A DNA stretch of 30,031 nt. Source: Gemmatimonadota bacterium. GTDB taxonomy: Bacteria > Gemmatimonadota > Gemmatimonadetes > Palauibacterales > Palauibacteraceae. The DNA is taken from positions 1 through 30,031 of the forward strand of contig JBHIAV010000036.1 of NCBI GenBank assembly GCA_046758745.1. Direction: 5' to 3'. Shown one piece after another: positions 2,945-30,031 of this stretch. Position numbers and translations under genes: made by a program. Under the pieces are notes generated by a model. It was not told the DNA's origin. It made no database searches and worked only from the letters and a program-made list of their open reading frames with translations. Each line of letters begins with the position of its first letter. Within the stretch, counting starts at the first letter, position 1.

Positions 2945-3482
2945 ATGCGGACGAACCTTCTGCTGACGGGAGCTCCGGGCGTCGGAAAGACCACGGCGGT
3001 CCGTGCCCTCATCGGCCGCCTGAAGGGCCTGCGTCTGGCGGGCTTCACCACCGAGGAGGTGCGCGACGACCGCGGACGCCGCCGCGGTTTCCTGGCTCGC
3101 ACCCCGGCCGGTGAGGAGGTGCCCATCGCCGATGTCGGCTTCCCCACCCTCCCTCGGGTATCGAGGTACGGCGTGGACGTCGGTGCGATCGAGGCGCTCG
3201 CGGGCTCCGAGCTCGAGCTCCGGCCGGAGGTGGATCTCTACCTTATCGACGAGATCGGCAAGATGGAGTGCCTCTCCGCCCGCTTCGTGGAGGCCGTGCG
3301 GCGGCTCCTCGATTCCGAGAAGCCGGTGGTCGCCACGGTCGGTCGTCACGGCGCAGGGTTCATCTCGGAAGCGAAGCGGCGTCCCGACGCGGAGATGTGG
3401 GAGGTCACCCGGGCCGGGAGGGAGCTGATCCCGGATCGGATCGCGGCATGGCTTGCCGAGCGCGGGCTGGGGGGGGCGGTGA
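2945..3482 (+). CDS. NTPase_1 (THEP1/HCR-NTPase-like) nucleoside triphosphatase; in frame with the downstream transporter as assembled
   Basis: Walker A GAPGVGKTT, GFTTEEVR..G.RRGF, RVSRYGVD, Walker B LYLIDEIGKME. Confidence 0.85.
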
Positions 3483-15491: not shown

Positions 15492-16916
15492 CTACGCTAC
15501 GGAGTCCGTTGCCCGGGCATCTCGCGGGAGACGCACCCGAAAGAGCGCGCCCCCTGCAGGGCGATTCTCGGCCGTGACGCTCCCCCCGTGGGCCACGGCG
15601 ATGGCTCGGACGATCGACAGGCCGAGGCCGCTGCCCTCGACCCGCGTCCGCGAGGCATCCCCGCGCACAAAGCGATCGAAGAGGCTGTCCAGCGCTTCCT
15701 CCTCGATGCCCGGACCCGAATCCGCCACCTCGAGCACCGCCATCCCATCGTCGGCGGTCACCGAGACGTCCACCCTCCCTCCGGGGGGCGAGAACTTGAT
15801 CGCGTTGTCGAGGAGATTCCAGATGAGGCGATCGATGAGCTCCGGGTCGTAGTAACCGGTGGTCCGCCCTCGCGCGTTCACCTCCAGCCGGATGTTCCTC
15901 TCGTCCGCCCGCTTCCCGATGCGCCCAACGGTGCTCCGCGCGCGGTCGGCCAGATCGATTCTCTCTCGGCGCGGCTGCATGACCCCCGCATCGGAGCGGG
16001 CCAGGGTCAGGAGGTTCTGCGCGAGGTTCGAGAGCCTCTCCGTCTCCTCCAGCGCGCTGTCGATCACCCGCCGATACTCCTCGGGGCTCCGCTCGCGCCG
16101 AAGGGCCAGTTCCAGTTCCCCGCGCAGAGCGGTAAGGGGCGACCGTAGCTCGTGACCCGCATCCGCCGTGAAGCGGCGCTGCGCCTCGAACGCGGCATCG
16201 ATCCGCCCCAGCATCGTGTTCAGCACCTCGACCAGTCGGTGGTATTCGCGCCATTCGGCGTGGGCGCTGATGCGCCGGCCGAGCGTGTTGGCGCCGATCT
16301 CCTCCGCCTGATCGATGACCTCGCGCACGGGACGCAGGCTCGTGGCCGCTAGCCACCAGGCCCCGACGAAGGTGCCGCCCGACACGACAAGGACCAGTCC
16401 GACCAGGAAGAAGGCGGTCCTCCGCAGAGTCTTGTTGCGCCACGTGAGGGGAGCCGCCACCTGCAGCACGTGGCGGGCGTGGCCCGGACTGAGGCGGCCC
16501 AGCGGATAGTACACCGAGCGAATCGCCTCCCCCCGGAATCGATTCTCCCTCCAGATCAGCTCTCCGGTCACCGCTCGCCGCAGCGCCGCCGTGTCCACGG
16601 GAAGGTCCTCTGCCAGGTACTCGCTCCGCAGCAGGCTCTCCCCGGACTCGCTCCAAACCTGCAGATAGCGGTTCAGGTCCTTGAGCGAGGCCGCTTCCTC
16701 CGGGGTGAGGTTCCACTCGTGGAAGAACATCACGCCCGCGGGGTCATCGGCAACCGTCGCCGCCTGGATCGAGGCGACGCTCATCACGCTCGCGTCGATC
16801 TGACGGTCGAGGGTCTCTCGAACAACCAGGTAGCCGAGCCCGGCCGCCGCGGAGAGGCCGAGCGTCATCGTCGCGCCGTAGCGAAAGGCGAGCTGGAGGC
16901 AGACGGAGCGTCTCAT
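15492..16916 (-). CDS. heavy-metal-type sensor histidine kinase (CusS/CzcS-like)
   Basis: Two TMs, HAMP domain, H-box FTADAGHELRSPL, N-box NLLDNAIKFS, DSGPGI, GSGLGLSI. Start set at MRRSV. Confidence 0.88.
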   Translation of the reverse strand: MRRSVCLQLAFRYGATMTLGLSAAAGLGYLVVRETLDRQIDASVMSVASIQAATVADDPAGVMFFHEWNLTPEEAASLKDLNRYLQVWSESGESLLRSEYLAEDLPVDTAALRRAVTGELIWRENRFRGEAIRSVYYPLGRLSPGHARHVLQVAAPLTWRNKTLRRTAFFLVGLVLVVSGGTFVGAWWLAATSLRPVREVIDQAEEIGANTLGRRISAHAEWREYHRLVEVLNTMLGRIDAAFEAQRRFTADAGHELRSPLTALRGELELALRRERSPEEYRRVIDSALEETERLSNLAQNLLTLARSDAGVMQPRRERIDLADRARSTVGRIGKRADERNIRLEVNARGRTTGYYDPELIDRLIWNLLDNAIKFSPPGGRVDVSVTADDGMAVLEVADSGPGIEEEALDSLFDRFVRGDASRTRVEGSGLGLSIVRAIAVAHGGSVTAENRPAGGALFRVRLPRDARATDSVA

Positions 16917-16924
16917 CCGGCTTT

Positions 16925-17605
16925 CTACTCGGGCGCCGTGCGGCTCAGCATGAATCCGACGCCCCGCACGGTGTGGATCAGGGGGCTCCGTCCGCCGCGC
17001 CGGAGCTTCTGACGCAGGTTGGCCACATGCACATCCACCACATTGCTCATCGGGTCGAAGTGCTCGTCCCACACCTTCTCGAGCAACTCCGTCCGCCGCA
17101 CCGCCTGTTCAGGCCGCAGGAGCAGGTACTCCAGGAGCTGGAACTCTTTCGGGGTCAGGCCCAGGCGTTCTCCCGCGCGCGAAGCCGTGTGCCCGATCCG
17201 GTCGAGTTCCAGGTCGTTGTACACCAGGAGCTCCGGACGGCTCGGTCCGCCGCGGCGAAGCAGGGCCCGGACCCTGGCCAGGAGCTCGTCGAAGCTGAAC
17301 GGCTTCGTGAGATAGTCATCCGCCCCGATGTCGAGGCCCCGAACCACATCTTCCGTGGAGTCCCGGGCCGTGAGAAGAAGGATCGGCACCGGGTCTTCCT
17401 CCTTCCTGAGCTCGCGCACGATCTCGTATCCGCTCTTTCCGGGGAGCATGATATCCAGCACCAGGAGATCGTAGTCGTAGACGTGGGCCTTCAGGGACCC
17501 ATCTACGCCGTCATGGGCCACATCGACCGCATACCCCTCCTCCCTCAGCCCTCTGGCGACGAAGCTCGCCACCTTCTCGTTATCCTCGACAACCAGCAAC
17601 CTCAT
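16925..17605 (-). CDS. OmpR-family response regulator (CusR/CzcR-like)
   Basis: MRLLVVED, LDIMLP, GADDYLTKPF, LTPKEF.LL, SNVVDVHV.NLR.K, TVRGVG. Confidence 0.93.
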   Translation of the reverse strand: MRLLVVEDNEKVASFVARGLREEGYAVDVAHDGVDGSLKAHVYDYDLLVLDIMLPGKSGYEIVRELRKEEDPVPILLLTARDSTEDVVRGLDIGADDYLTKPFSFDELLARVRALLRRGGPSRPELLVYNDLELDRIGHTASRAGERLGLTPKEFQLLEYLLLRPEQAVRRTELLEKVWDEHFDPMSNVVDVHVANLRQKLRRGGRSPLIHTVRGVGFMLSRTAPE

Positions 17606-18189: not shown

Positions 18190-19254
18190 ATGATGAAGAG
18201 ACAGTTTGGCCCGCCCTCAGTTCTGGCTGGCGTCCTCGCCGCGGGGATGCTCACCCTGCCCGGCTCCGCCCACGAGCTCCGGGCCCAGGGCCTGAAGGTC
18301 ACGGGCTATGGCGATCTGGAGTGGACGCTCCAGCGTCAGGACGACCCGGAGGACAAGTATCACAACTTCTTCGACAACCACCACATCAATCTGATCCTTC
18401 TCGGCTGGATCGTCGATGACGTGACGGTCGGTGCGGAAGTGGAGTACGAGCACGCGGGCGAGGAGATCGCCCTCGAGTACGGCTACCTCGCGTACACCGG
18501 GATCAGGAACCTTCGGCTGGCGGCTGGCAAGTTCATCATCCCATTCAACCGCTGGAACAAGGACCTGCACCCCACCTGGGTCAGCAAGATGCCGGGTCGT
18601 CCCCTGGTCTACTCGAACGTTTTTCCCTCCACCTACTCGGACGTCGGAGTGTGGGCCACGGGCGGCCTGTCTATCGGCATCGGGAACCGCTTCACCTACG
18701 ACCTCTACGTGGTGAACGGGCTGGAGGGGGATCCGGATGCGTCGAGCTTCCGAGGGCTGCGCGGCAACGATCGCGAGAAGCAGTTCAAGGACGACAACAA
18801 GGCGGTCGGTGGCAGGCTCGGCGTGGAGCTGGCGAGCGGTCTCGGGCTGGGTTTCTCCGGCTACACCGGTGAGTACGCGCCGGACCTGCAGATGAGCTTC
18901 GTGGGCGGCGACATCGACTACCGCCTGGAGGAGCTGGAGCTTAGGGCCGAGGTGGTGCACGCCCGGCAGGACCTCACCACCGGAGACACGAACGAGCGGA
19001 CCGGGTTCTACGCGCAGGCGGCGTACGGCCTGGGAGCCGTGTCCGAGGGGTTGGCGAACCTGGAGCCGGTCGTCCGCTTCTCCTGGGTGAACTTCGAGGG
19101 TGATGCGTCCGACACCTCCGAGCTCGGCGTCGGCTTCAGCTATTACCTGTCCGCCTCGGCGTCCGTTCGCTTCGCCTGGTTCTTCAACATGGAACAGGAA
19201 GCATTCGAGAAGAAGAACGACAAGCTGATGAGCCAGTTCAACGTCGTGTTCTAG
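18190..19254 (+). CDS. outer-membrane porin (OprO/OprP-like fold, uncharacterised subfamily)
   Basis: RBS AGGAGG; signal peptide; AEVEYEH, LEYGYL, AGKFIIPF, LHPTWVSK, DDNKAVGGRLG, GFYAQAAY, C-terminal F. Confidence 0.8.
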   Translation: MMKRQFGPPSVLAGVLAAGMLTLPGSAHELRAQGLKVTGYGDLEWTLQRQDDPEDKYHNFFDNHHINLILLGWIVDDVTVGAEVEYEHAGEEIALEYGYLAYTGIRNLRLAAGKFIIPFNRWNKDLHPTWVSKMPGRPLVYSNVFPSTYSDVGVWATGGLSIGIGNRFTYDLYVVNGLEGDPDASSFRGLRGNDREKQFKDDNKAVGGRLGVELASGLGLGFSGYTGEYAPDLQMSFVGGDIDYRLEELELRAEVVHARQDLTTGDTNERTGFYAQAAYGLGAVSEGLANLEPVVRFSWVNFEGDASDTSELGVGFSYYLSASASVRFAWFFNMEQEAFEKKNDKLMSQFNVVF

Positions 19255-19312
19255 AGCAGTGAAGATCCGGCGTCGGCGGATGAACCGTTGACGATGCCGA
19301 GGAGGGGCGAAG

Positions 19313-19924
19313 ATGAGAAAGCGAAGGAAGTCAACAGCGGCCCTCGGCGCGCTGGCAGGTCTAGCGGTCCTCGGCTCCGTCTCCCCTGCGACTGCCCAGG
19401 AGTCGGGCGCGCAGGTGTGGGGAAGAGCCTGCGGACGCTGCCACAGAGCCCAGCCGCCGAACAAGTACGACGCGGACGCCTGGCACGCGATCATGGGTCA
19501 CATGGCGCTGAACGCACGGCTCACCTCCGAGGAGGAGGCGGCGGTGAGGGAGTTCCTCATGGGAGCCGCTCGTCGGCTCACCCAGGAGCCCTCCCTGGAG
19601 CCTGTCGAGGTGCCTCTGCTGGCCTCCGCCGAAATCGGCTTCCTCCCCGCAGCGGACAGCGCCGGCATCTACGAGAAGCAGTGCTCGGCTTGTCACGGAT
19701 CCGAGGGGAAGGGTGATGGACCGGCAGCCGCTGCGCTGACCCCGCACCCGACAGACCTCACGGACACGGAGCGCATCGGAGCGTTGAGGGACGAGGAGCT
19801 GCTCGAAGTTCTCAAGAACGGCAAGGGCGCGATGCCTGGGTTCGCCAGACTCCTGACGGAAGAGGAGTTGAAGGCGGTGCTCGGCTATGTGCGAAGGCTG
19901 AGCGAAGAGAAAGACGAGGACTGA
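19313..19924 (+). CDS. periplasmic diheme cytochrome c
   Basis: Signal peptide ATA-QE; CGRCH...W..IMGHM; CSACHG..GKGDGPAA...GKGAMPGF. Confidence 0.9.
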   Translation: MRKRRKSTAALGALAGLAVLGSVSPATAQESGAQVWGRACGRCHRAQPPNKYDADAWHAIMGHMALNARLTSEEEAAVREFLMGAARRLTQEPSLEPVEVPLLASAEIGFLPAADSAGIYEKQCSACHGSEGKGDGPAAAALTPHPTDLTDTERIGALRDEELLEVLKNGKGAMPGFARLLTEEELKAVLGYVRRLSEEKDED

Positions 19925-20050: not shown

Positions 20051-20875
20051 ATGAGCCCATGTGGGGAAGGTGGAGGTGCTCCCGAGACGCACGGCACGCG
20101 TCGGCCGTGGCTCCAGGGGCGCGGGTCACCTGGCCCGCGCCGCGCGGCGCACCGCCTCTCGTTACTAGGCCTTGGATTGCTCGTTACTCCGATCGTGGGT
20201 GGGTGCGCAGGGGGGGAGGAACCAACGCAAACAACCGTCACGCTAGCGGCGCTGGACAGCCTGCTCGTGGAGCTCGGCGGCATTCCCACGGGTGCCCTCT
20301 CCCGCGGGCAGCGATGGAGGATGATCAGCTCCAACGGCGCCGGCCTTCCACCCTCAAACTTCAAGCCGGAGGATCTTCCCGAGCCTCGTTCCCGCGGAGC
20401 GGTCCTTCTGCAGGTGTACTGCGTCCAGTGCCACTGGCTGCCCGCCCCGCAGATGCATTCGGCGGCGGAGTGGCCAGTCCTCTTGCGGCGCATGATGATG
20501 CGGGCCCGGACGCTCCGGGATCGGATGGGAGGGGCGATGACGACGGAATTCCTCGGCGAAATCCTGATGGCCGGGCTGTCGAGCACCGAGCTCCCGTCGC
20601 CGGCCGACGCCGATACTCTGCTCATGTATCTCCAGACACATGCCCTGCCGGCGGCGGGGGCTGCCGAGTTCACCGACGGGCCCGACGCCGAACTGTTCGT
20701 CGAGATCTGCTCGATCTGCCACGAGACGCCCTCTCCTAGCGCGCACACGGCGGCCGGATGGGAGCCCGTGGTTGCCAGGATGCGGGCGAACATGTCCATG
20801 ATGGACGTCCAGCCGCTGACGGATCGGCAGACGGATCGCATCGTCGCGTACTTGAAGGGCCGTGGGGCTTCATGA
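20051..20875 (+). CDS. diheme cytochrome c, probable lipoprotein
   Basis: RBS GGAGG; lipobox-like IVGGC; tandem domains CVQCH..P.P..H.A.EW..LL.RM and CSICH..P.P..H.A.GW..VV.RM. Confidence 0.85.
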   Translation: MSPCGEGGGAPETHGTRRPWLQGRGSPGPRRAAHRLSLLGLGLLVTPIVGGCAGGEEPTQTTVTLAALDSLLVELGGIPTGALSRGQRWRMISSNGAGLPPSNFKPEDLPEPRSRGAVLLQVYCVQCHWLPAPQMHSAAEWPVLLRRMMMRARTLRDRMGGAMTTEFLGEILMAGLSSTELPSPADADTLLMYLQTHALPAAGAAEFTDGPDAELFVEICSICHETPSPSAHTAAGWEPVVARMRANMSMMDVQPLTDRQTDRIVAYLKGRGAS

Positions 20876-20876
20876 G

Positions 20877-21368
20877 ATGGATGGGCCCGGCGATGACCGT
20901 CGCCATTTTCTGAAGCGCGTCGTCCTGGCGACCTCGGGAGTGCTGAGCAGCGCTCTCGCGGCTACCGCCGGAGGTTACCTGTTTGCCGGCGCGGGGAGGA
21001 AACAAGGTGCGCGGTGGACCACTGTGGCCCGCCTGGACGACATCGAGCCCGACCGGCCTCTCCATGCCGAGTACCTCCAAGTCGTGCCCGATGCATGGGC
21101 CACCATCCGTCGGCGCCAGTCGGTCTGGCTGGTGCGCGGGCCGGAGCCGGAGATCATCGCGTTCGACCCCCACTGCACGCACCTGGGGTGCCCCTACGAT
21201 TGGGATTCCGACGAGCGGGTATTCAAGTGCCCCTGCCATGATGGCGTGTTCGACATTGAGGGACGGGTTCTCGCGGGACCTCCTCCCCGACCGCTCGACC
21301 GTTTGGAGGTCCGAATCGAGGACGACTGGCTGCTCGTAGGTAGCCTAAGGCGCACGGGCTCGGCGTAG
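20877..21368 (+). CDS. qcrA: Rieske iron-sulfur subunit of a menaquinol:cytochrome c reductase
   Basis: Tat motif RRHFLK plus TM; CTHLGC and CPCHDGVF boxes; GPPPRPLD. Confidence 0.92.
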   Translation: MDGPGDDRRHFLKRVVLATSGVLSSALAATAGGYLFAGAGRKQGARWTTVARLDDIEPDRPLHAEYLQVVPDAWATIRRRQSVWLVRGPEPEIIAFDPHCTHLGCPYDWDSDERVFKCPCHDGVFDIEGRVLAGPPPRPLDRLEVRIEDDWLLVGSLRRTGSA

Positions 21369-21374
21369 GAACCG

Positions 21375-23069
21375 GTGAGGAAGCGAGGGGGCGGCTTCTG
21401 GAACGAGCGCCTTGGAGTGGGCTCCATACGGTCCGCCTTGCTGGAGCGTCCCGTGCCCGCCGAAGTCGGGTGGTTGCACACCCTGGGCTCCGTGACGCTG
21501 GCGCTGCTTGCCGTCCTCACCCTCACGGGAGTTCTCCTTACCCTCAACTACTCCCCATCCACGGAACATGCCTACCACAGTGTCCGCTATATCGAGAACG
21601 AAGTCCCGCTCGGGTCACTGGTCCGAGGGCTGCACCACTGGGCCGCGTCCTTTGTGGTCGTGGCGATCGCTCTCCATCTGCTCCACGCCTTCGTCCACTT
21701 CGCCTTTGTCCGGCCGCGCGAGCTCACCTGGTGCACCGGTGTGGCCCTTCTGCTCATCGTGCTGGCATTCGGGTTCACGGGCTACCTCCTCCCGTGGGAC
21801 GAGAAGGCCTATTGGGCGACCGTCGTTGGCACAAGCATGGCGAGGCAGGTCCCGGGCGCCGGGGAGTCCCTGCTCTATCTGCTGCGCGGCGGGGCCGAGG
21901 TGGGCGCGGCGGCCTTGTCGCGCTTCTACGGCGCACACATCACCCTGCTGCCCGTGCTGCTCGCCCTCCTGGTGGGTGTGCACCTGTATCTCGTCGTGCT
22001 GCACGGCATCTCGAGAGACGGCGAGGGCCGCGCGCGGCGGCGCCGCCGGGCCGGTGCTAACGCGCGGGACGGCTCGGTCGACGGGCGGGCGGAGGAGTCG
22101 CGGAGCGTGCCCTTCTGGCCCGACGTCCTCGCGATGGACGCAACCGCCGTTTTCCTGGTCCTGGCGCTGCTCTTCTTCATCGCTCTGCAGGTCGGCGCGC
22201 CGCTCGAAGCACCGGCCGACCCGACGAACACGGAGTACACGCCGAGGCCGGATTGGTATTTCCTGCCGCTCTTCAAGCTCCTCACCTTCTTCCCGGGCTC
22301 GGCAGAGTCGATCGCGGCGCTCGGCTTGCCCCTCCTCATGGCGACGGCTCTGCTGTCGCTGCCCTGGTGGGGGCGGTCGCTCGTGCGCTCGGCCTGGGGA
22401 AGAACATCGCTGCTCGGGGGCGCCGGGCTGGCGTTCACGAGCGTCATCGCCCTGGGCGTAGCGGGCGCCCGAGCGTCCCCACGGGGACTAGCGCCACCTC
22501 CGCCCGCCGTCGCCCGCGGGCGGTTGCTCTTCGATCAGCTCGGCTGTCTGAACTGCCACACCATTCGTGGAATCGGCGGCATCGTCGGGCCTGACCTTAC
22601 GGTGGTCGGGCTTCGGCGTCCGGATTTCGGATGGCTGGCGGACCATCTGCGAGACCCGCGTTCGATCGTCCCGGCGACCCCCATGCCGGCCTTCCCGCTC
22701 CAGGGGGAGAGTTTGAGCGACCTGGTGGCCTTTCTGCTCTCCCTGGGGAACGACGTCCGCTACTCGGCGCTGGCCCCGGAGCTCTACCGGAAGAACTGCT
22801 CGGCCTGTCACCGCCTGGGCGGGCAGGGCGGGACGTATGGGCCCGATCTCGGTCGCGTGGGGCGCTTGAGGACCGTCGCCTACATACACCAGTACACAGA
22901 GGATCCGTCATCGCTCAACCGCGATGCCCGAATGCCCGCCGCGGTCAACCTCACCCACGAGCAGGTGGAGGATGTCTCACGGTACGTGGTGGCCACTGCA
23001 CGGGGGGCACAGGGAGGCGTGCGACCGGAAAGACCATCGCCCGACTCGACTGGCGGCCCGGAAGAGTAG
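21375..23069 (+). CDS. qcrB: cytochrome b (b6-like plus subunit IV-like) fused to two cytochrome c domains
   Basis: RGLHHWAAS...LH, TGYLLPWD, FYGAH-x14-H, PDWYF; then CLNCH...MPAF and CSACH...MPA. Confidence 0.92.
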   Translation: MRKRGGGFWNERLGVGSIRSALLERPVPAEVGWLHTLGSVTLALLAVLTLTGVLLTLNYSPSTEHAYHSVRYIENEVPLGSLVRGLHHWAASFVVVAIALHLLHAFVHFAFVRPRELTWCTGVALLLIVLAFGFTGYLLPWDEKAYWATVVGTSMARQVPGAGESLLYLLRGGAEVGAAALSRFYGAHITLLPVLLALLVGVHLYLVVLHGISRDGEGRARRRRRAGANARDGSVDGRAEESRSVPFWPDVLAMDATAVFLVLALLFFIALQVGAPLEAPADPTNTEYTPRPDWYFLPLFKLLTFFPGSAESIAALGLPLLMATALLSLPWWGRSLVRSAWGRTSLLGGAGLAFTSVIALGVAGARASPRGLAPPPPAVARGRLLFDQLGCLNCHTIRGIGGIVGPDLTVVGLRRPDFGWLADHLRDPRSIVPATPMPAFPLQGESLSDLVAFLLSLGNDVRYSALAPELYRKNCSACHRLGGQGGTYGPDLGRVGRLRTVAYIHQYTEDPSSLNRDARMPAAVNLTHEQVEDVSRYVVATARGAQGGVRPERPSPDSTGGPEE

Positions 23070-23310: not shown

Positions 23311-23377
23311 CTGATTCCTATCTTTGTGTTTGGCGGGAACGTGGAGCGCGGGGAACGACGCACACAAGGGCGGAAAG

Positions 23378-23896
23378 ATGGCTCGAGCACTCGGCACTGC
23401 CTTGGCAGCGACATTCGCGGGGGGCCTGTCCCTCGTGGCGACCTCCCCACATCCGGGCCACACCCCGCAAGATTCGGCGACGCGGACCATCATCGTGAAG
23501 ATGGTCGAGTTCGCGTTCGAGCCGCCGGTGGTTGTGAGCCGTGCGGGGGATGTGGTCCGTTTCGTCCAGACCACCGCCACTCCACACAACGTGCAGTTCC
23601 GGGTCGTCCCGAAGGGAACGGAGCTGACCTTCCAGGGGCCAACGACGGCCGTTGACACCGAACCGGTTCGAGTCGGCTATCCCCCTCCCCGAATGGGCCC
23701 GTTCCTGATCAAGCCGGGGCAAGCATACGAAATCGTCATCTCCGAGGAGTTTCCGACTGGGCTCTACCGATACGTGTGCACGCGGCACGAGAAGCTGGGG
23801 ATGAGCGGGGAGATTGGGGTGGCACCCTCCGCCGTGTCGAGCTTGCGGGTGAGACGATCCCGCCAGGGCAAGGCCGTCGGGTTCCTCGAGACTTAG
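23378..23896 (+). CDS. cupredoxin (plastocyanin/azurin-family blue copper protein)
   Basis: Signal-like N-terminus; F.FEP, GDVVRF, PHNV, YRYVCTRHEKLGM give the type-1 Cu ligands H, C, H, M. Confidence 0.88.
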   Translation: MARALGTALAATFAGGLSLVATSPHPGHTPQDSATRTIIVKMVEFAFEPPVVVSRAGDVVRFVQTTATPHNVQFRVVPKGTELTFQGPTTAVDTEPVRVGYPPPRMGPFLIKPGQAYEIVISEEFPTGLYRYVCTRHEKLGMSGEIGVAPSAVSSLRVRRSRQGKAVGFLET

Positions 23897-23910
23897 GACG
23901 GAGGATTCAA

Positions 23911-24777
23911 GTGAGCAGCTATACGAAGCGCAGCGCACTGGTCGTGGCGGCGAGCCTCCTCGCTTGGGGCTGTGCGAGTTCGGACAACCCCACGGCTCTC
24001 GCCGACCTCGAGCCGGTCGTCGAGTTCGAGATCGAGGCGGCCGAGGTGGAGACCATGGAGGGGGTGGAGGTCCACGCGGCCGTCCACGAAGGCGGAGCGC
24101 CGCTCCGGATGACCTCGGCCCAGCTGGAGATCGAGCCGGCGAGCGGGAGCCCCGTCCGGGTGGTGGAGATGGAGCCGGAAGGCGACGGATACGGCGCCCA
24201 CGTGCGCTTCTTCGAACCGGGCGAGCACCACCTGCGCCTCCTGGGCCAACCGGAGCGACACAACCTCATGCGCGAGATGGGCGAGCACGAGGTGCATGTG
24301 TTTCGCCAGCACCGCGCGATCGGTCCCTATTGGATCGAGATCGGAGTGCGCCCGGCGCGGATCATCGAAGGCGAGGAAGCCGTTGTCCGCCTTTACGCGT
24401 TCGAGCTCGTGCCGGACGGGACCATCGGCCCTCCGGTGAACGGACTCCAAATGGAGACGAGCCTGCATCACCCGGGTGGGCATGAGACGCCTCTCGATTT
24501 CACCGAACAGGAGCCCGGCCTGTACGAGGCGGAGTGCCTGTTCGCCGAAGCCGGTGTGTACGAGCTCCACGTGGGGATCGAGGGGGAAGAGGCGGAGCAC
24601 AGTGAGGAGGAAGAGGGAGAAGAGTACGCCGAAGGCGAGCACTGGGAGGAAGAGCACGTCGACGACGGCCACGATCACGAGGCCGAATTCCACATCGTGG
24701 TGCTGACGGAGTCCGGCGATGACGTCGGAGGTCCCGAGGACGGCCATGGAGGAGACGACCATGGGCACGCGCACTGA
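23911..24777 (+). CDS. lipoprotein with two YtkA/FixH-like Ig domains and a His/acidic-rich C-terminus (putative metal chaperone)
   Basis: RBS GGAGG, GTG start; lipobox LAWGC; DGYGAHVRFFEPGEHHL and PGLYEAECLFAEAGVYEL; tail ...HVDDGHDHE...DGHGGDDHGHAH. Confidence 0.7.
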   Translation: MSSYTKRSALVVAASLLAWGCASSDNPTALADLEPVVEFEIEAAEVETMEGVEVHAAVHEGGAPLRMTSAQLEIEPASGSPVRVVEMEPEGDGYGAHVRFFEPGEHHLRLLGQPERHNLMREMGEHEVHVFRQHRAIGPYWIEIGVRPARIIEGEEAVVRLYAFELVPDGTIGPPVNGLQMETSLHHPGGHETPLDFTEQEPGLYEAECLFAEAGVYELHVGIEGEEAEHSEEEEGEEYAEGEHWEEEHVDDGHDHEAEFHIVVLTESGDDVGGPEDGHGGDDHGHAH

Positions 24778-25897
24778 GCAGGTCGGCATGCTGTCCGGCC
24801 TCGGTGCCGCAGCGCTTCTGCTCCTCTTCACAGCGCAGGGAGCGGCGGCCCAAGAGGCGGACGCCGATTCGAGAGTCGTCCCGACCAACGCGTTCGTGGT
24901 CAGCGGCTACGGCACGGTCGGGTACTCGGCTCGTACAACGGGCGAAAACATCAACGCGTTCACCGCCGGCATAAACCCGATCTTCCTGTTCCAATTCCAG
25001 GACCGGGTCCTCTTCGAGGCGGAGTTCGAGTTCGAACTGGAGGAGGGCATCACGGAGACGGGGCTGGAGTACGCTCAGCTCGACTTCGTCGCCACGGACA
25101 ACCTGACCCTGGTTGGAGGCAAGTTTCTCCTGCCCTTCGGCGTCTTTGGAGAGCGACTCCATCCGACCTGGATCAACAAGTTCCCCAGCGCTCCGCCCCT
25201 GTACGGGCACCACGTATCCGACTTCGGAGCGGAGCCGCTGCTCCCGATCCTCTCCGACCTGGGCCTGATGGCCCGCGGCACGGTGTCCCCCGGGGCCTGG
25301 CAGCTCAGCCTCAACCCCTATGTCGTGCAGGGGCCGGTCGTAGAGGGCGAGCTGGAGGGAGAGGAGACCCACGAAGGGGAAATCGCCGTACCGGAGCTCG
25401 AGTTTCCGGCATCCTCGAGTGACAACAACGCGAACAAGATGCCGGGCGTCCGGCTCGACATCGCCCTCCCGCCCTGGCTCGAGGTCAACGGCTCGATCCT
25501 CAACGGCGATTACGACGAAGTGGGCATCCTGGACTTCACCGCGTGGAATCTGGCAGCTGAGCTTCGCTTCTCAAAGTTCGAGCTACGGGGCGAGTACGTG
25601 CAGACGCGCCAGGAGATCGAAACGCTCGAGGGCTTCCCGACGCTGGTGCGGGACGGCTTCTACGCCCAGGCCTCCTACCGGGCGGGGCGCTGGGAGCCCG
25701 TGTTCCGCTGGACGCAGGTCTTCGATGACCAGCTCGCTGGCGAGTCCATCGGGAATGGCGCCTGGCAGGCGGGATTCGGCCTCGACTACTGGTTCAGCCC
25801 CTCGATCGCGGTGATGGCGGGATACGAGTTGAACCGCGAAGACGGAGCCGAGGTGGAAAACGATCGATTCCTGATCCACGTCGCGTTCGGCTATTAG
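24761..25897 (+). CDS. outer-membrane porin, paralog of 18190-19254
   Basis: RBS GGAGGAG; signal AAA-QE; EAEFEFE, LEYAQLD, GGKFLLPFG, LHPTWINK, DNNANK, GFYAQASY, terminal HVAFGY. Confidence 0.82.
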   Translation: MGTRTEQVGMLSGLGAAALLLLFTAQGAAAQEADADSRVVPTNAFVVSGYGTVGYSARTTGENINAFTAGINPIFLFQFQDRVLFEAEFEFELEEGITETGLEYAQLDFVATDNLTLVGGKFLLPFGVFGERLHPTWINKFPSAPPLYGHHVSDFGAEPLLPILSDLGLMARGTVSPGAWQLSLNPYVVQGPVVEGELEGEETHEGEIAVPELEFPASSSDNNANKMPGVRLDIALPPWLEVNGSILNGDYDEVGILDFTAWNLAAELRFSKFELRGEYVQTRQEIETLEGFPTLVRDGFYAQASYRAGRWEPVFRWTQVFDDQLAGESIGNGAWQAGFGLDYWFSPSIAVMAGYELNREDGAEVENDRFLIHVAFGY

Positions 25898-25907
25898 GAA
25901 GGGAGCC

Positions 25908-26537
25908 ATGAGATACATACTGACAGGAGGAGCGCGCGCCCTGGCGTGCCTCGCGGTGTTCTCCCTGGCGGCGCTCGTCGCCGACGACGCCCCCGGTCAG
26001 GAAGTCTCGACCTCCCGGGTCGCGACGGGCGCGAGGGTGTACGGCAGCATGTGCGGTCGTTGCCACAACCCGCGCTCCCCGCTGGAGCGCAGCGACCGTG
26101 AATGGACCGTCATCGCGAACCATATGCGCATCCGTGGGAACCTCACGGGCGATCAGGTGAAGAGCGTGCTGGCGTTCCTGCAGGCGACCAACACCGATCC
26201 GCGTCAGCGGTCGGGTCCGGCGAACGAACCGGCGCCCGGCGCGCCCCACGATGAGGCCGAGCGATTGGAAGGACCCATCACGACCGACGCGGGCGCGATC
26301 TCACGCGGCCGGAGCCTGGTCTCCGAGAAGGCCTGCCTGGGATGTCATGTGATCGGGGACGCTGGGGGCAAGGTCGGCCCGACGTTGAACGGCATCACGG
26401 GCCGTCGCGAGCCGTCGTTCATCCGGCGCAAGCTCGCGGACCCGACCTTCAACACCAGCACATCCATGATGCCGAACTTCGGGCTTACGGCGGATGAGAT
26501 CGAAGCCCTGCTGGCCTATCTGTCGACGCTGGAGTGA
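25908..26537 (+). CDS. periplasmic diheme cytochrome c (N-domain paralogous to 19313-19924)
   Basis: CGRCHN...W..IANHM; CLGCH.IG..GG.VGP.L...MMPNF. Confidence 0.9.
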   Translation: MRYILTGGARALACLAVFSLAALVADDAPGQEVSTSRVATGARVYGSMCGRCHNPRSPLERSDREWTVIANHMRIRGNLTGDQVKSVLAFLQATNTDPRQRSGPANEPAPGAPHDEAERLEGPITTDAGAISRGRSLVSEKACLGCHVIGDAGGKVGPTLNGITGRREPSFIRRKLADPTFNTSTSMMPNFGLTADEIEALLAYLSTLE

Positions 26538-26715: not shown

Positions 26716-28116
26716 TCAAAAGGCAAGGTGTAGAGCAACACGGCCGAACTCTTCAAACAATGGTAGGTCAGGTGCTCTTTCGCTGCTCCAGCTATATCCG
26801 ATCATCAGCATTGTGTTCGAGCTCAGCAACATCAGGAGATCCGAGGAATATCGCTGGAAGCTCGAGGGAAAGCCTGCGGGGAATCCATCTACATCCACTC
26901 GTTCATAGCGGAACCCCGGTACTAGCCAAGGAAAGATGTATACTTGAGCCTCTCCGGTCGTGACTGTGGCGGACGGATTGTTCAGTGACGGTCTCTGCAA
27001 CTTGTCGTCGAAGAACTGTACCGATGCCAACAGGCTCAGATATCCGTTCTCCTGTTCCCACCTTGCATCCAGGCCCCAGCGCTTGAAGTCATTCCCGCCT
27101 GCCAAGAAGGACTCGGGGTCTTCCTGATCGAGCAGAAATCCAGACGTCCCGCTGTAAAAGAATCCTCCCGCTGAAAACGCGCCGCGAAGCCAGGTGTTAT
27201 AGTTGACGCGAGCGTAGTAGTCCTTCGCGTCATTATAATCGAACTCTCCTCCCCCTCCTTCGTACGCCTCCTTGAGTTCGCGGACGAGCTCTCCTACCGG
27301 GCCATCCGCGTCCTCCAGCGCCTCGAACGCCCCACCAGGCTCTCCGTTGACGAGCCCGACAGAATAGTCGACATCGCCCACTCCACCCGGGCCAGTGAGG
27401 CGACCAAAGACCTCGACTCCTTTCTGGTTTGGCGAGAATCCGAAGAAGTTCTGCGCAGGAATAACAGGAAAGACGCCGTTGAGATACGGCGTAATGCGCA
27501 GCAACCGCCGGTGGTTGGAGAAGGGTATCGCTCGAGGTTCGAATTGTCCCACCCGAACGTTAAAGGCAAGCCCCTGGTTGTACTGGAGAAAAAGTCGATC
27601 TATTCCCTCGAAGCGTCCCTCCTCGATAAGAGCGACATTGCCGAAGAACGAAAAATACTCGCCCATCGCGCCACCGAAGATCAGCCCGACGGAACTGATT
27701 CCGGCAAACTCCTGGTTGACCTCCGCTCCGGGACGGTATCTATAGTCCGAGATCACTTGAAACGAGGCGACGGAGGTGGCCGGTATATCGATGAAAGGTA
27801 TCTGGCTCGGTCTCTTCTTCCCGGTCGCCTCAACCTCCGGTCCCAATGGAAGAGGCTGTTCGCCGGCCAGCGTTTCCCCAGCACCCGGCAAACGGTAGCC
27901 CTTTGCCCGAAAAAGCTTGCCGTACTCGGTAAGAGACGGGAATACCGTGTGGCAGGTGCTGCAACTCAAGTTGTATCGGCGCGCAAAACTAGGGACAGAT
28001 GTTTCCGTCGGGGATAGTGACGGGTGGGGGACGATCGCCGGCGCCACCACAAGCGCGGGAGCCAGCACGCTCGCCAGGTTCAGGTGAGTCGCGCAAAGCT
28101 TATTGAGCAGATGCAT
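26716..28116 (-). CDS. cyc2: Cyc2-like fused monoheme cytochrome-porin
   Basis: N-terminal signature VPSFARRYNLSCSTCHTVFPSLTEYGKLFRAKGY followed by an amphipathic beta-strand barrel (NVRVGQFEP, terminal ALHLAF). Confidence 0.78.
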   Translation of the reverse strand: MHLLNKLCATHLNLASVLAPALVVAPAIVPHPSLSPTETSVPSFARRYNLSCSTCHTVFPSLTEYGKLFRAKGYRLPGAGETLAGEQPLPLGPEVEATGKKRPSQIPFIDIPATSVASFQVISDYRYRPGAEVNQEFAGISSVGLIFGGAMGEYFSFFGNVALIEEGRFEGIDRLFLQYNQGLAFNVRVGQFEPRAIPFSNHRRLLRITPYLNGVFPVIPAQNFFGFSPNQKGVEVFGRLTGPGGVGDVDYSVGLVNGEPGGAFEALEDADGPVGELVRELKEAYEGGGGEFDYNDAKDYYARVNYNTWLRGAFSAGGFFYSGTSGFLLDQEDPESFLAGGNDFKRWGLDARWEQENGYLSLLASVQFFDDKLQRPSLNNPSATVTTGEAQVYIFPWLVPGFRYERVDVDGFPAGFPSSFQRYSSDLLMLLSSNTMLMIGYSWSSERAPDLPLFEEFGRVALHLAF

Positions 28117-28181
28117 GGCCCGCTACCCTTCGCCGGCTGCTCAGTGAACGGAAAGAGTGTCAGAAAGGCACGCCGGCCCGG

Positions 28182-28940
28182 CTATTTCGCGATGATCGAA
28201 AGCAAGTAGTTCGTCAGATCCCACATCTGATCCTCACTGAGTGCATCGAGCCAACTCGGCATGGGAGTGCCGCCGATTCCTACAGCGATGCTTCGGAAGA
28301 TGTCCTGCGGCCGGTTGCCCCCACGCCAGTTTCGTGAAACCGTCAGGTCAGCCGGGACGATCGGGTAATCCCAGTCGTCAGTTAAGTCGCCCGACGCCGG
28401 ACCGTCGCCTTTCCCGAGAAAACCATGGCATTTCCAACACTCGACTTCCAGATAAAGCCGTCTGCCGTTGGCGACACTTTCCGGGTACGGCGGCTTGGGC
28501 GTTCCGATCTCGATCGGCACCGGCACATCTTCCTCGTCGAAGCTGCGTGCCAGGGTCTTCACATAGGCCACCAGCTGCCAGCGTTGCTTCTCAATCAGGT
28601 TTGACCAGGCCGGCATCGTGGTTCCGGGAAGCCCCCGGGTGAGCGTACCAAAGAGATCCTGATCGGTGGGGAGACTGCCGGTCGGAGTGGAGCGGATCTT
28701 GAAAAGCCCCCGCGTCAGGTCTCTCGGCTTAGGGAAGATATACCTCGCGACGGGGCCGTCCCCCCTGCCCTTCGTGCCGTGACAGAAGACACATTTCCTG
28801 CGGTAAAGCCGTTTCCCGGCGGTCACCGCCCCGTCTTGGGCTATCCAGCTCTCTCCCGCCGCCGATTGCGCTTGCAGCTCAGTCGGCATCCCCGCACATG
28901 CGAGGATCACGACAGCGGCTATCGTACGCTGCTTGCTCAT
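28182..28940 (-). CDS. periplasmic diheme cytochrome c
   Basis: CVFCHG..GRGDGP...PKPRDLT.G.FK.RST...MPAW; CWKCHG..GKGDGP...GTPMPSW. Start set at MSKQRT. Confidence 0.9.
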   Translation of the reverse strand: MSKQRTIAAVVILACAGMPTELQAQSAAGESWIAQDGAVTAGKRLYRRKCVFCHGTKGRGDGPVARYIFPKPRDLTRGLFKIRSTPTGSLPTDQDLFGTLTRGLPGTTMPAWSNLIEKQRWQLVAYVKTLARSFDEEDVPVPIEIGTPKPPYPESVANGRRLYLEVECWKCHGFLGKGDGPASGDLTDDWDYPIVPADLTVSRNWRGGNRPQDIFRSIAVGIGGTPMPSWLDALSEDQMWDLTNYLLSIIAK

Positions 28941-28998
28941 CGGATACCGATCGCCGCCTCGGCCCAGGGTTCCAATCTCGTGTGGGGCACCCGGTGGC

Positions 28999-29742
28999 TT
29001 ATCTCGCCTCCAGCTCCACGTCAACGCGCACCTTTCCGGCATCGGGAATGGTCACCTGTCGAGTCTGGGTGCCAAGCCTCTCGTGCCACACCTCCAGCGT
29101 GTACCTGCCCGGGGGCACCTCCTCGAGTTGGTACGAGCCGTTCTCGTCCGTGACCGCATAGTAGGGGTGGGCCGCCACTACGATCCACGCTTCCATCCAC
29201 TCGTGGATGTCACACTCGACCCGGATCCTCTCCGGTTGCCTGAACTTGACCTGGAGCTTCTTCAGCATCCCCGGTTGCGCCTTGTTGATCGGGCGATTCT
29301 CTGAGCTGCGGGTGCTGAAGTTGTGAAGAATGCCATCGCTGTTGAGGACAGCGAACGGCGCCCCGGCCGGAACGACGAGCACGTGAGGGGCGAAACGGCA
29401 GCCCCTCTGGTCGAGGGCTCGAGGCTCGCTCTGGGTGCCGAACGGCTTGCCTTCCGTTATATCGCTTAGGGAAACGACCGCATTCCGCAATCCGTTCGTC
29501 CCGCTCTTTACGAGAAGATCTTCGGCAACTTTCGGCTCTGCTCCGCAGACCTCGTGGTCTTTGGTAACTTCAAGACGTGTGGGTGCTGGTAGCGTGCCCG
29601 TAACCGTAACGCTGCCGATGATTTGTCCGCCGCCCTCCACCTCGCGCGCGTTGTAGGCAGGAGCCTGCTGGGAATAGCCAAAGGATGCGGTTGTGGCCGT
29701 CCAGGCAACCACCATGAGTACCGAGTAGCGCCGTTTCAGCAT
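28999..29742 (-). CDS. secreted protein with a cupredoxin-like domain and a carboxypeptidase-regulatory-like Ig domain
   Basis: LDQRGCRFAPHV, NSDGILHN, CDIHEWM (H...C-x2-H-x2-M), HPYYAVTD.NG.Y.L..VPPG.YTL.VWHE.LG. Start set at MLKRRY. Confidence 0.82.
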   Translation of the reverse strand: MLKRRYSVLMVVAWTATTASFGYSQQAPAYNAREVEGGGQIIGSVTVTGTLPAPTRLEVTKDHEVCGAEPKVAEDLLVKSGTNGLRNAVVSLSDITEGKPFGTQSEPRALDQRGCRFAPHVLVVPAGAPFAVLNSDGILHNFSTRSSENRPINKAQPGMLKKLQVKFRQPERIRVECDIHEWMEAWIVVAAHPYYAVTDENGSYQLEEVPPGRYTLEVWHERLGTQTRQVTIPDAGKVRVDVELEAR

Positions 29743-30031
29743 CTGCGTTCTCCGGGCGCTCGATGCCGCTGGATCACGCGAGCGCACTAAGCGGTTCGAG
29801 GCACTAGGGGGGGTGGAGAGGAGTTCTTGTTTGCGAGTGGAAATGCGAAACGTTCTGGACCACAGCTTCGCCGCCTGCGCTTCTGCGGCACTCCGATTGA
29901 TGGTACGAATTCCGGGCTCGGCACCCTCAAGGTTTCCTCACCTTGTTCGACATCTAATCTATAGCCGACAGTGTGGCTCGTCTGTCGGGAGAGGCCCGAG
30001 CGCGCCTGTCGGGGATCTCCCCTCCCGCATG

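Follow-up and report, generated by a model that had tools for sequence, protein, structure and literature searches.

The window, by which we mean the whole 30,031-nt stretch of DNA analysed, belongs to contig JBHIAV010000036.1 (assembly GCA_046758745.1) of a member of the Palauibacteraceae within the Gemmatimonadota. A sequence-only reading of this DNA had described a minus-strand succession of a cupredoxin-domain gene, a diheme cytochrome c gene and a Cyc2-like gene, and all three open reading frames (ORFs) are present in that order. The genes and their principal features are:

28999..29742, minus strand: gene 1, putative secreted type-1-copper cupredoxin, 247 aa from ATG 29742 (ORF, fold matches)
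29194..29325, minus strand: copper-site segment of gene 1, H155 ... C192-x2-H195-x2-M198, numbered from GTG 29787 (translation, homolog alignment)
28182..28940, minus strand: gene 2, putative periplasmic diheme cytochrome c, homolog of the Kustc0457 type (ORF, Pfam, PDB match)
28425..28793, minus strand: haem motifs of gene 2, first CVFCH (5') and then CWKCH (3') (translation)
26716..28116, minus strand: gene 3, Cyc2-like fused monoheme cytochrome-porin, 466 aa (ORF, model, fold matches)
27895..27993, minus strand: cytochrome signature of gene 3, residues 42-74, PSFARRY-NLS-CSTCH-TVF-PSL...G..F...GY (translation, motif of Keffer 2021, invariant columns)
26722..27771, minus strand: predicted 16-strand beta-barrel of gene 3, residues 116-465, with C-terminal ...LAF (DSSP on the model, fold matches)

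The stop codon of the 466-aa gene ends at position 26716. Taking the likely starts, the intergenic gaps are 58 and 65 nt, and the identical three-gene order was found again in seven related loci, in keeping with the proposed three-gene operon. Scans for regulatory signals were uninformative, returning no promoter-like site and two terminator-like sites, both within genes and fewer than the shuffled expectation.

Motif and fold criteria support the assignment of gene 3 to the Cyc2-type fused cytochrome-porins, as had been proposed for the last gene of the set. Measured against the six sequence and structure criteria of Keffer 2021, the predicted protein agrees with five, the exception being PXFAR[Q/K][T/Y]. 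CSTCH (residues 52-56) is the sole CXXCH of the protein, and exactly one CXXCH is found in 84 of 87 relatives. The P of PXL lies four residues past CXXCH, in CSTCH-TVF-PSL, and the length of 466 aa compares with a minimum of 365 aa in the same source. A putative signal peptide was assigned by eye at the N-terminus, where the model has a hydrophobic helix (residues 2-27); the leaders of relatives end in A-x-A directly before VPSFAR, and the corresponding junction of TETS with VPSF in gene 3 is less canonical.

The sequence at the exceptional motif, PSFARRY, agrees at six of the seven specified positions and carries a conservative R at the Q/K position, enough for a literal filter to drop the protein. 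It stands three residues before the C of the haem motif, the same spacing as in relatives. The literal pattern is passed by 53 of the 87 relatives; among the 79 that carry the general pattern, the final pair is KY in 43, RY in 21 and QT in 12. The signature first read from this DNA, P.FAR....C..CH...P.L...G..F...GY, was exact in all but one respect: five residues, and not four, separate P.FAR from C..CH. Nine of its residues (P42, A45, R46, C52, C55, H56, P60, L62 and G66) never vary across an alignment of 57 relatives, so the signature is no chance match.

The structural model of gene 3 contains 16 strands by DSSP and has an overall pLDDT of 79.5, with most of the barrel at 85-95. The cytochrome domain is modelled poorly (pLDDT <50 at residues 29-42 and 79-114), and hence the position of the haem is not fixed by the model. 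The top two Foldseek matches in the PDB are OprO (4rjw, E 9.3e-12) and OprP (2o4v_A, E 1.2e-11), the porins that Keffer 2021 names for Cyc2. Neighbouring porins were considered as split relatives of this barrel and ruled out (hhalign probability 0.25%). An acidic helical insert at approximately residues 257-301 of the barrel is family-specific and conserved in 36 sequences.

Gene 3 therefore resembles the Cyc2 family as represented by A. ferrooxidans Cyc2, Mariprofundus Cyc2 PV-1 and Leptospirillum Cyt572 in Keffer 2021 and McAllister 2020: these likewise combine a single CXXCH, PxFAR at equal spacing and PXL with a length of ~460 aa, a signal-peptide-like N-terminus, a 16-strand barrel and OprO/OprP as best fold. 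It differs from them in the R in place of Q/K, in the conserved acidic insert and in the company it keeps, its closest relatives occurring in metagenome-assembled genomes (MAGs) labelled Gemmatimonadota, Acidobacteriota and Scalindua, none a known iron oxidizer.

Pfam and NCBIfam gave no family match for gene 3 or for eight other fused cytochrome-porins, a PDB sequence search returned merely chance multiheme matches (E >= 0.28), and Atlas matches were exclusively 'hypothetical protein' clusters. Beyond the 87 relatives, a profile search reaches 4789 representatives. A profile built from the distant 'QT' relatives retrieves 7850 proteins, of which the 120 listed come from soil Proteobacteria, are unnamed or called 'cytochrome C' or 'hypothetical', and include no known iron oxidizer. 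Against plasmids, tblastn gave a single, N-terminal-only match, in Methylocystis. One relative, P0031 (48% identity to gene 3 over 92%), is identical to the protein of locus L010, whose contig is titled KW1-S15_279_cg253; gene cg253_2 of that contig, which we equate with the L010 ORF from ORF order, is listed as 'Cyc2' by FeGenie in Tables S7, S8 and S13 of PMC10367259. The motif of P0031, PSYARKY, likewise misses the literal pattern. Cyc2 homologs in Gemmatimonadota, Acidobacteriota and Scalindua/Planctomycetota have already been reported; approximately 75% of such MAG homologs fall in cluster III (PMC9769843), and the term 'Cyc2' was not found in the supplement of PMC10732223.

Gene 1 appears, from its fold and its His-Cys-His-Met ligand set, to be a type-1 copper cupredoxin, and copper binding is predicted. 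The longest ORF runs from GTG 29787 (262 aa); ATG 29742, its residue 16, is also the start in the Atlas record. H155, C192, H195 and M198 (C-x2-H-x2-M) are invariant in all 30 homologs aligned, and they align to the amicyanin-loop chimera 5u7n_A. The model (pLDDT 89.7) gave 57 PDB fold matches at E <= 0.001, and the 50 listed are almost all of cupredoxin fold, which bears out the earlier description of a cupredoxin-domain protein. The best matches are CuA domains, NirK, amicyanin, plastocyanin and pseudoazurin; rusticyanin is absent among the 50 listed of the 57.

The Pfam Copper-bind model does not detect gene 1, for which Pfam finds only a partial CarboxypepD_reg match (residues 207-260, profile positions 28-82). 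This partial match, taken with a conserved N-terminal G-x-I-x-G-x-V strand, suggests that a CarboxypepD_reg (prealbumin-like) beta-sandwich encloses the cupredoxin domain. In databases the family is named either 'carboxypeptidase regulatory-like domain-containing protein' or 'plastocyanin'. Gene 1 shares ligands, fold and the short C-x2-H-x2-M loop of amicyanin with the single-domain cupredoxins (amicyanin, plastocyanin, pseudoazurin), but differs from them in being coupled to a CarboxypepD_reg beta-sandwich, into which its domain seems to be inserted.

Gene 2 most likely starts at ATG 28940; its longest ORF extends to 29042 and would overlap gene 1. It contains the two CXXCH motifs listed above and Pfam Cytochrom_C is found in it twice, in agreement with its first description as a diheme cytochrome c. 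Residues 74-284 match residues 9-219 of the 226 of PDB 6h5l_B (E 1.6e-61), and cytochrome c4 is absent among the 15 PDB matches listed. We infer that chain B of 6h5l is Kustc0457, the diheme subunit of the Kustc0458/7 HAO complex of Kuenenia stuttgartiensis (PMC8042395). With both CXXCH motifs present and similarity to 6h5l_B over the full length, gene 2 belongs with the Kustc0457 type. The likeness spans 211 residues and both haem motifs; in contrast to Kustc0457, gene 2 has no adjoining HAO-like octaheme gene and is partnered by a porin-cytochrome and a copper protein. Its homologs (n=8) have signal-peptide-like N-termini. A lipoprotein reading of the N-terminus (ILAC) was ruled out, the Cys being not conserved in those eight homologs.

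The rus operon of Acidithiobacillus ferrooxidans has the arrangement cyc2-cyc1-ORF-coxBACD-rus. In both systems an outer-membrane Cyc2-type protein, a diheme cytochrome c and a blue-copper protein are encoded together, and to that extent the suggestion that the window echoes the rus operon stands. The echo is a loose one, however: the window module lacks cox genes, and its genes run in the opposite order, ending with the porin. The further suggestion that the partners are not orthologous to the rus proteins was supported, with gene 2 matching 6h5l_B and no c4 appearing among the 15 PDB matches listed, and with gene 1 being a two-domain protein resembling amicyanin, plastocyanin and CuA domains and no rusticyanin appearing among the 50 fold matches listed. 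The module is an analogue of the rus operon, not a member. There is also a likeness to MtoAB, PioAB and MtrCAB, in which an outer-membrane barrel and a cytochrome also carry electrons across the outer membrane; their barrel has 26 strands and their decaheme protein is a separate one, whereas gene 3 has one fused haem and 16 strands.

The partnership with the copper protein extends well beyond the window. We surveyed 29 related loci (360,479 bases), from MAGs labelled Gemmatimonadota, Acidobacteriota and Scalindua/Planctomycetota, by tblastn with the copper protein. Of 33 matches, 32 fall no further than 2 kb from a Cyc2-like gene and always on its strand, yet the 2-kb flanks of Cyc2-like genes make up only 28.8% of the bases. 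A homolog within 2 kb on the same strand was found in 25 of the 29 loci, which share kinship and do not represent independent events. The placement of the copper gene varies by clade, being upstream of the Cyc2-like gene, downstream of it or on both sides, and the diheme gene is limited to the closest clade (10 of the 29 loci). Across phyla, only the copper protein is conserved as a partner. That chance or shared descent placed the three genes side by side, with no functional link, is scarcely tenable: the nine closest loci (67-74% identity) could owe their order to recent common ancestry, but the pairing persists down to 27% identity, in MAGs of at least three phyla and in four arrangements. 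The linkage already makes that explanation unlikely, and the association of porin-cytochrome and copper protein is not due to chance. We did not find this conserved partnership in print, within the accessible literature; the trees of Keffer 2021 may already include relatives.

The module also belongs to a wider redox island of 12 kb, comprising porins, c-type cytochromes, a plastocyanin and a Rieske/cytochrome b complex, whose further members were identified by Pfam:

20862-21368, plus strand: Rieske protein
21375-23069, plus strand: cytochrome b fused to c-type haem domains
23324-23896, plus strand: plastocyanin-family protein
23776-24777, plus strand: His-rich YtkA-like protein
24719-25897, plus strand: Porin_4 porin
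25908-26537, plus strand: second diheme cytochrome c

Homologs of the divergent genes at 23324..26537 adjoin the module in three related loci (L001, L006 and L009), and are colinear in L006. The Rieske protein and cytochrome b fusion (20862..23069) form a possible inner-membrane end of the chain. Elsewhere, Cyc2-like and cupredoxin genes are followed by Rieske/cytochrome b genes in L021, L023, L024 and L027 and by a Rieske gene in L029, and such genes adjoin the module in Scalindua and Solibacteraceae loci. Genes for a terminal oxidase are absent from the window, which additionally encodes a 12-haem MtrC/MtrF-like cytochrome and a putative porin, kinds of protein typical of outward electron transfer.

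These neighbours raise other explanations. The adjoining YtkA-like, plastocyanin-family and porin genes might point to copper or general metal homeostasis, with a porin and periplasmic copper proteins at its core and the cytochromes incidental; we regard this as very improbable, because an invariant haem motif is part of the porin polypeptide itself, the copper protein has an electron-transfer type-1 site and no chaperone site, and in other phyla the pair sits with Rieske/cytochrome b respiratory genes. The same copper-handling neighbours fit a module that oxidizes or senses another soluble reductant, such as Mn(II), Cu(I) or reduced organic shuttles, by reuse of the Cyc2-like fold. This agrees with the distance of the clade from tested Cyc2 proteins, just the N-terminal 40 residues aligning with the 'QT' group, with the clade's own acidic insert and with its occurrence in lineages not known as iron oxidizers. 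One-electron oxidation of Mn(II), however, requires a potential far above that of a c-type haem. Within the accessible Cyc2 literature we also found no family member with a different substrate, and on balance a different reductant is improbable.

A conduit that works outwards or in both directions deserves equally little credence. Here, electrons would pass from the quinol pool through the Rieske/cytochrome b complex and the carriers to the porin-cytochrome, and on to soluble Fe(III) chelates or Mn(III/IV). In favour of such a route are the adjacent Rieske/cytochrome b genes of the Scalindua and Solibacteraceae loci and the 12-haem cytochrome, which lies near the module in the window and in L014. 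Type-1 copper carriers, which are of high potential, are nevertheless poor donors to low-potential Fe(III) at neutral pH. The Acidithiobacillus Cyc2 chain has been termed reversible in the abstract of 10.1101/2021.03.22.436458; against an outward route, Keffer 2021 argues that solid acceptors are out of reach for a single haem inside so narrow a barrel of 16 strands, and all three biochemically tested Cyc2-family proteins described there and in McAllister 2020 are Fe(II) oxidases.

Given the observed gene content, motifs, folds and conserved linkage, we lean towards the view that the three genes form one transcription unit building a surface-to-periplasm electron conduit for Fe(II) oxidation. 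Gene 3 would reside in the outer membrane, with its N-terminal monoheme domain at the periplasmic mouth of the 16-strand porin. By analogy with characterized Cyc2 proteins, dissolved Fe(II) would enter the pore and yield one electron to the haem, from which it would pass to soluble periplasmic carriers encoded just upstream of gene 3. Because it is the partner conserved across phyla, the type-1-copper protein is probably the direct acceptor from the porin-cytochrome; the Kustc0457-type diheme cytochrome c would serve as an additional periplasmic carrier in this clade, and its homology to the subunit that transfers electrons in the Kuenenia HAO complex counts in favour of a conduit. Beyond the carriers, a terminal oxidase or reductase whose genes lie outside the window would take up the electrons, or they would be driven uphill into the Rieske/cytochrome b complex nearby. 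We infer this direction of flow, together with the order of the carriers and Fe(II) as the substrate. Keffer 2021 gives a potential of 208 mV for Cyc2 PV-1 and places Fe(II)/Fe(III) near 0 +/- 100 mV at pH 7. With a type-1 copper protein, a carrier of high potential, beyond, inward flow from Fe(II) would fit and Fe(III) reduction would not. Most Cyc2 homologs of organisms that are not iron oxidizers are functionally untested (McAllister 2020).

It is tempting to go further and to speculate, tentatively, that the porin-cytochrome and its nested copper partner might constitute a two-protein redox module of its own, mobile by horizontal transfer and defining a hitherto undescribed branch of the Cyc2 pathway, common to Gemmatimonadota, Acidobacteriota and marine anammox Scalindua. 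In Scalindua and Solibacteraceae the module directly adjoins a Rieske/cytochrome b complex equipped with an NAD(P)-linked iron-sulfur flavoprotein; there, it would drive Fe(II)-derived electrons uphill for the formation of NAD(P)H.

Annotation of the locus as a Cyc2-type electron conduit is plausible and was partly anticipated, FeGenie surveys listing Cyc2 in these phyla; it amounts to no demonstrated new metabolism. Cyc2 is the main genetic marker for inferring iron oxidation in metagenomes, and the periplasmic acceptors of its electrons are poorly known beyond Acidithiobacillus. A Cyc2-type subfamily that keeps one copper protein across three phyla provides a concrete, testable partner pair, and the copper partner could help to tell real electron-conduit homologs from incidental HMM matches. 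If the link to Rieske/cytochrome b in Scalindua holds, it would be relevant to the way in which anammox and sediment bacteria link iron with their nitrogen and carbon metabolism. Were the porin-cytochrome and copper protein indeed a distinct module, supposed heterotrophs and anammox specialists would gain a lithotrophic, iron-oxidizing option in which a copper protein, and no cytochrome, is the first periplasmic carrier.

A conserved unit is shown to encode three proteins with secretion-type leaders: a Cyc2-type one-haem barrel, a type-1 copper protein and a diheme cytochrome. Its three ORFs lie head-to-tail on the minus strand at 26716-29787.

28999-29787 (longest ORF), minus strand: gene 1, copper protein; likely start ATG 29742, where the Atlas record begins
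28182-29042 (longest ORF), minus strand: gene 2, diheme cytochrome; likely start ATG 28940, where a signal-peptide-like leader begins
26716-28116, minus strand: gene 3, Cyc2-like cytochrome-porin

The sequence-only reading had placed the end of the operon at 29742, which is the likely ATG of gene 1 and the start in the Atlas record. Eight gene 2 homologs carry a signal-peptide-like leader at the corresponding start and, given the likely starts of the three genes, the intergenic gaps are 58 and 65 nt. Promoter and terminator scans yielded nothing useful for the module.

The gene 3 protein has no family match in Pfam or NCBIfam; eight other fused cytochrome-porins are equally without an NCBIfam match, and the lack is thus attributable to there being no model. 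Among the criteria that Keffer et al. 2021 give for Cyc2 are a signal peptide, one CXXCH, an upstream AXPXFAR[Q/K][T/Y], a PXL 4 residues downstream, at least 365 aa and a 16-strand porin modelled on OprO/OprP (PMC8406198). The gene 3 protein agrees with every testable criterion except at one residue: it is 466 aa long with a single CXXCH, its translation reads PSFARRY-NLS-CSTCH-TVF-PSL, and its model, built from 57 sequences (pLDDT 79.5, pTM 0.78), has 16 strands, with OprO (4rjw) and OprP (2o4v_A) as the best two PDB fold matches. The sole departure is an R at the [Q/K] position, because of which a literal Keffer tree filter would lose this protein while keeping many relatives; among those with the general pattern in the word-seeded search set, 43 have KY, 21 RY and 12 QT. 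The motif string read earlier from the sequence was one position short between FAR and C and otherwise exact. The protein is predicted to work like Cyc2. We also observed within the barrel (26722-27771) a strongly conserved acidic helical insert at about residues 257-301 (GEPGGAFEALE ... EEAYE..GG.FD.N..KD.Y), in which N257, G258, D293, N295, K298, D299 and Y301 are invariant across 36 sequences. This insert may be a cation-binding loop.

The word-seeded search with the gene 3 protein gave 87 relatives, and the 57-sequence profile matched 4789 representatives with an E<=0.001 cut-off, falling to 2742 at 1e-10 and 449 at 1e-30. Our genome scan yielded 29 loci with a Cyc2-like gene (L001-L029). 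Those at 67-74% identity come from MAGs whose label is mostly Gemmatimonadota but in one case Bacteroidota (L003) and in another Planctomycetota (L007); those at 36-48% are in MAGs labelled Acidobacteriota, with the short locus L028 at 27%; and those at 27-35% belong to Scalindua, Brocadiia, other Planctomycetota and one MAG labelled Alphaproteobacteria. One relative, P0031 (48% identity over 92% of length), is identical to the protein of L010, whose contig is titled KW1-S15_279_cg253 and whose Cyc2-like ORF is the second gene; KW1-S15_279_cg253_2 is a FeGenie ‘Cyc2’ entry in Tables S7, S8 and S13 of PMC10367259. Cyc2 homologs have been published for MAGs spanning 17 phyla, Gemmatimonadota, Acidobacteriota and Planctomycetota among them, with about 75% in cluster III (PMC9769843), and a similarity cluster uniting Leptospirillum Cyc572 with Acidobacteria and Nitrospira homologs has been described (PMC10654088). 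Cyc2-type genes in these phyla have therefore already been reported.

To assess linkage to the copper protein, we compared the window proteins with the 29 loci (360,479 bases) by tblastn. All 33 copper-protein matches share the strand of the Cyc2-like gene and 32 of them lie within 2 kb of it, although the 2-kb flanks make up 28.8% of those bases. Against the rival of chance adjacency of the three genes, our own arithmetic puts such clustering of the copper protein at about 1e-16 under uniform placement, a figure that overstates independence because the loci are related; an adjoining diheme gene is confined to 10 of the 29 loci, those nearest the window. The pair of Cyc2-like and copper-protein genes occurs in 25 of the 29 loci, and in the remainder (L002, L010, L022, L029) the Cyc2-like gene begins no more than 711 nt from a contig end. 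Gene order varies: copper protein, diheme, porin in seven loci (L001, L003-L006, L008, L009); diheme, porin, copper protein in L007; the porin gene between two copper-protein genes in five Acidobacteriota-labelled loci (L012, L013, L015-L017); and porin, one or two copper-protein genes, then Rieske/cytochrome b in Scalindua and Brocadiia. Unrelated genes flank the module in L004, L008 and L009; hence it acts as a discrete unit. The module (26716-29742) has a GC of 0.593 and a GC3 of 0.65-0.74, below the values elsewhere in the window (GC 0.661; GC3 0.76-0.89, apart from the EB_dh gene at 0.68), which hints at horizontal acquisition; taken with the 67-74% modules in L003 and L007, this points to either horizontal transfer or binning error. 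A literature search, which covered neither figshare trees nor bioRxiv supplements, found no account of a link between Cyc2 and this copper protein among the papers listed, although this is not proof that none exists.

For gene 1, the Pfam match is restricted to the final two thirds of a CarboxypepD_reg domain (residues 207-260), and the PDB sequence search found a CuA domain with an amicyanin loop as a weak match (E 0.024), in which the His and the C-x2-H-x2-M loop are aligned. H155, C192, H195 and M198 are invariant in 30 homologs from the loci. The model (pLDDT 89.7) has 57 fold matches at E<=0.001, among them CuA domains, NirK, amicyanin, plastocyanin and pseudoazurin. Together with the partial Pfam match, a conserved G-x-I-x-G-x-V strand at the N-terminus suggests a cupredoxin inserted into a prealbumin-like sandwich. 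The family numbers 825 matches at E<=0.001 out of 1260 candidates, named, where names are given, ‘carboxypeptidase regulatory-like domain-containing protein’, ‘plastocyanin’ or ‘hypothetical protein’.

Gene 2 has two CXXCH motifs and two Pfam Cytochrom_C matches, and matches PDB 6h5l_B at E 1.6e-61. PDB 6H5L is described as a Kuenenia HAO structure, and Kustc0458 as having been crystallised together with the diheme Kustc0457 (PMC8042395); on these grounds chain B is presumably Kustc0457. The echo of the Acidithiobacillus rus operon heard in the sequence-only reading holds as a three-gene analogue but not as an ortholog: cytochrome c4 is absent among the 15 PDB matches of gene 2, and rusticyanin among the 50 fold matches listed for gene 1.

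On the strand opposite to the module, the window also carries a redox island of 12 kb. It encodes two porin and diheme-cytochrome pairs, one more diheme cytochrome, a plastocyanin-family protein, a His-rich YtkA-like protein, a Rieske protein and a cytochrome b joined to c-type domains. Several island genes have homologs on the flanks of the module in L001, L006 and L009. Individual features of the window are as follows.

18190-19924 and 24719-26537, plus strand: porin-then-diheme-cytochrome-c pairs
23776-24777, plus strand: YtkA-like/filamin-like protein, its C-terminal tail rich in His and acidic residues
11527-15209, minus strand: 12-haem MtrC/MtrF-like cytochrome (840 aa) beside a Porin_5-like protein
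681-1781, plus strand: EB_dh (ethylbenzene dehydrogenase gamma-like, haem-binding) domain protein (Pfam)
2945-4819, plus strand: 624-aa ORF with NTPase_1 (residues 4-166) and Nramp metal transporter (248-597), either a genuine fusion or a pair of genes joined by the longest-ORF rule
9610-11487, minus strand: full-length Peptidase_M2 (angiotensin-converting-enzyme family), E 7e-227

The paired porins are paralogs (31% identity, E 1e-23) in which no haem motif and no homology to the Cyc2-like barrel were detectable; such pairs, whose homologs stand beside the module in L001, L006 and L009, could be split porin-cytochrome systems. The YtkA-like gene sits between the plastocyanin-family gene and a porin, has homologs in the same three loci and may encode a periplasmic copper-handling protein; a rival explanation for the three-gene unit is that it is a copper homeostasis module. 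In L014, 2.1 kb from the Cyc2-like gene, a multiheme protein 38% identical to the 12-haem cytochrome is fused to a homolog of the diheme cytochrome. At a distance of 2.3 kb from the module, L004 (10708-12387, minus strand) encodes a protein joining an EB_dh domain to a diheme cytochrome that shares 44% identity with gene 2. Histidine kinase and response regulator pairs were observed 1-3 kb from the Cyc2-like and copper-protein genes in several Acidobacteriota-type loci (L012, L013, L015, L016, L017, L007), bearing only generic likeness (26-36%) to the pair in the window (15492-17605).

Among the Scalindua/Brocadiia and Solibacteraceae loci, Rieske and cytochrome b genes follow the Cyc2-like and copper-protein genes in L021 (10173-15357), L023, L024 and L027 (7311-15937), and L029 has a Rieske gene. 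In L021 (Scalindua) and L027 (Solibacteraceae) a Pyr_redox_2/Fer4_20 iron-sulfur flavoprotein also lies beside the pair, a set reminiscent of the NAD(P)-linked bc complexes described for anammox bacteria.

Type-1 copper centres generally have high potentials. Keffer et al. give 208 mV for Cyc2 PV-1 and about 0 +/- 100 mV at pH 7 for Fe(II)/Fe(III) (PMC8406198). Together these values favor inward electron flow over the rival of outward transfer to high-potential acceptors. Following Keffer's argument for Cyc2, Fe(II) would enter the pore of the gene 3 barrel and reduce the haem; a rival view has another soluble donor. The electron would then pass from the haem to the conserved partner, the copper protein, with the diheme cytochrome receiving or relaying it, before reaching an oxidase or reductase encoded outside the window, or the Rieske/cytochrome b complex.
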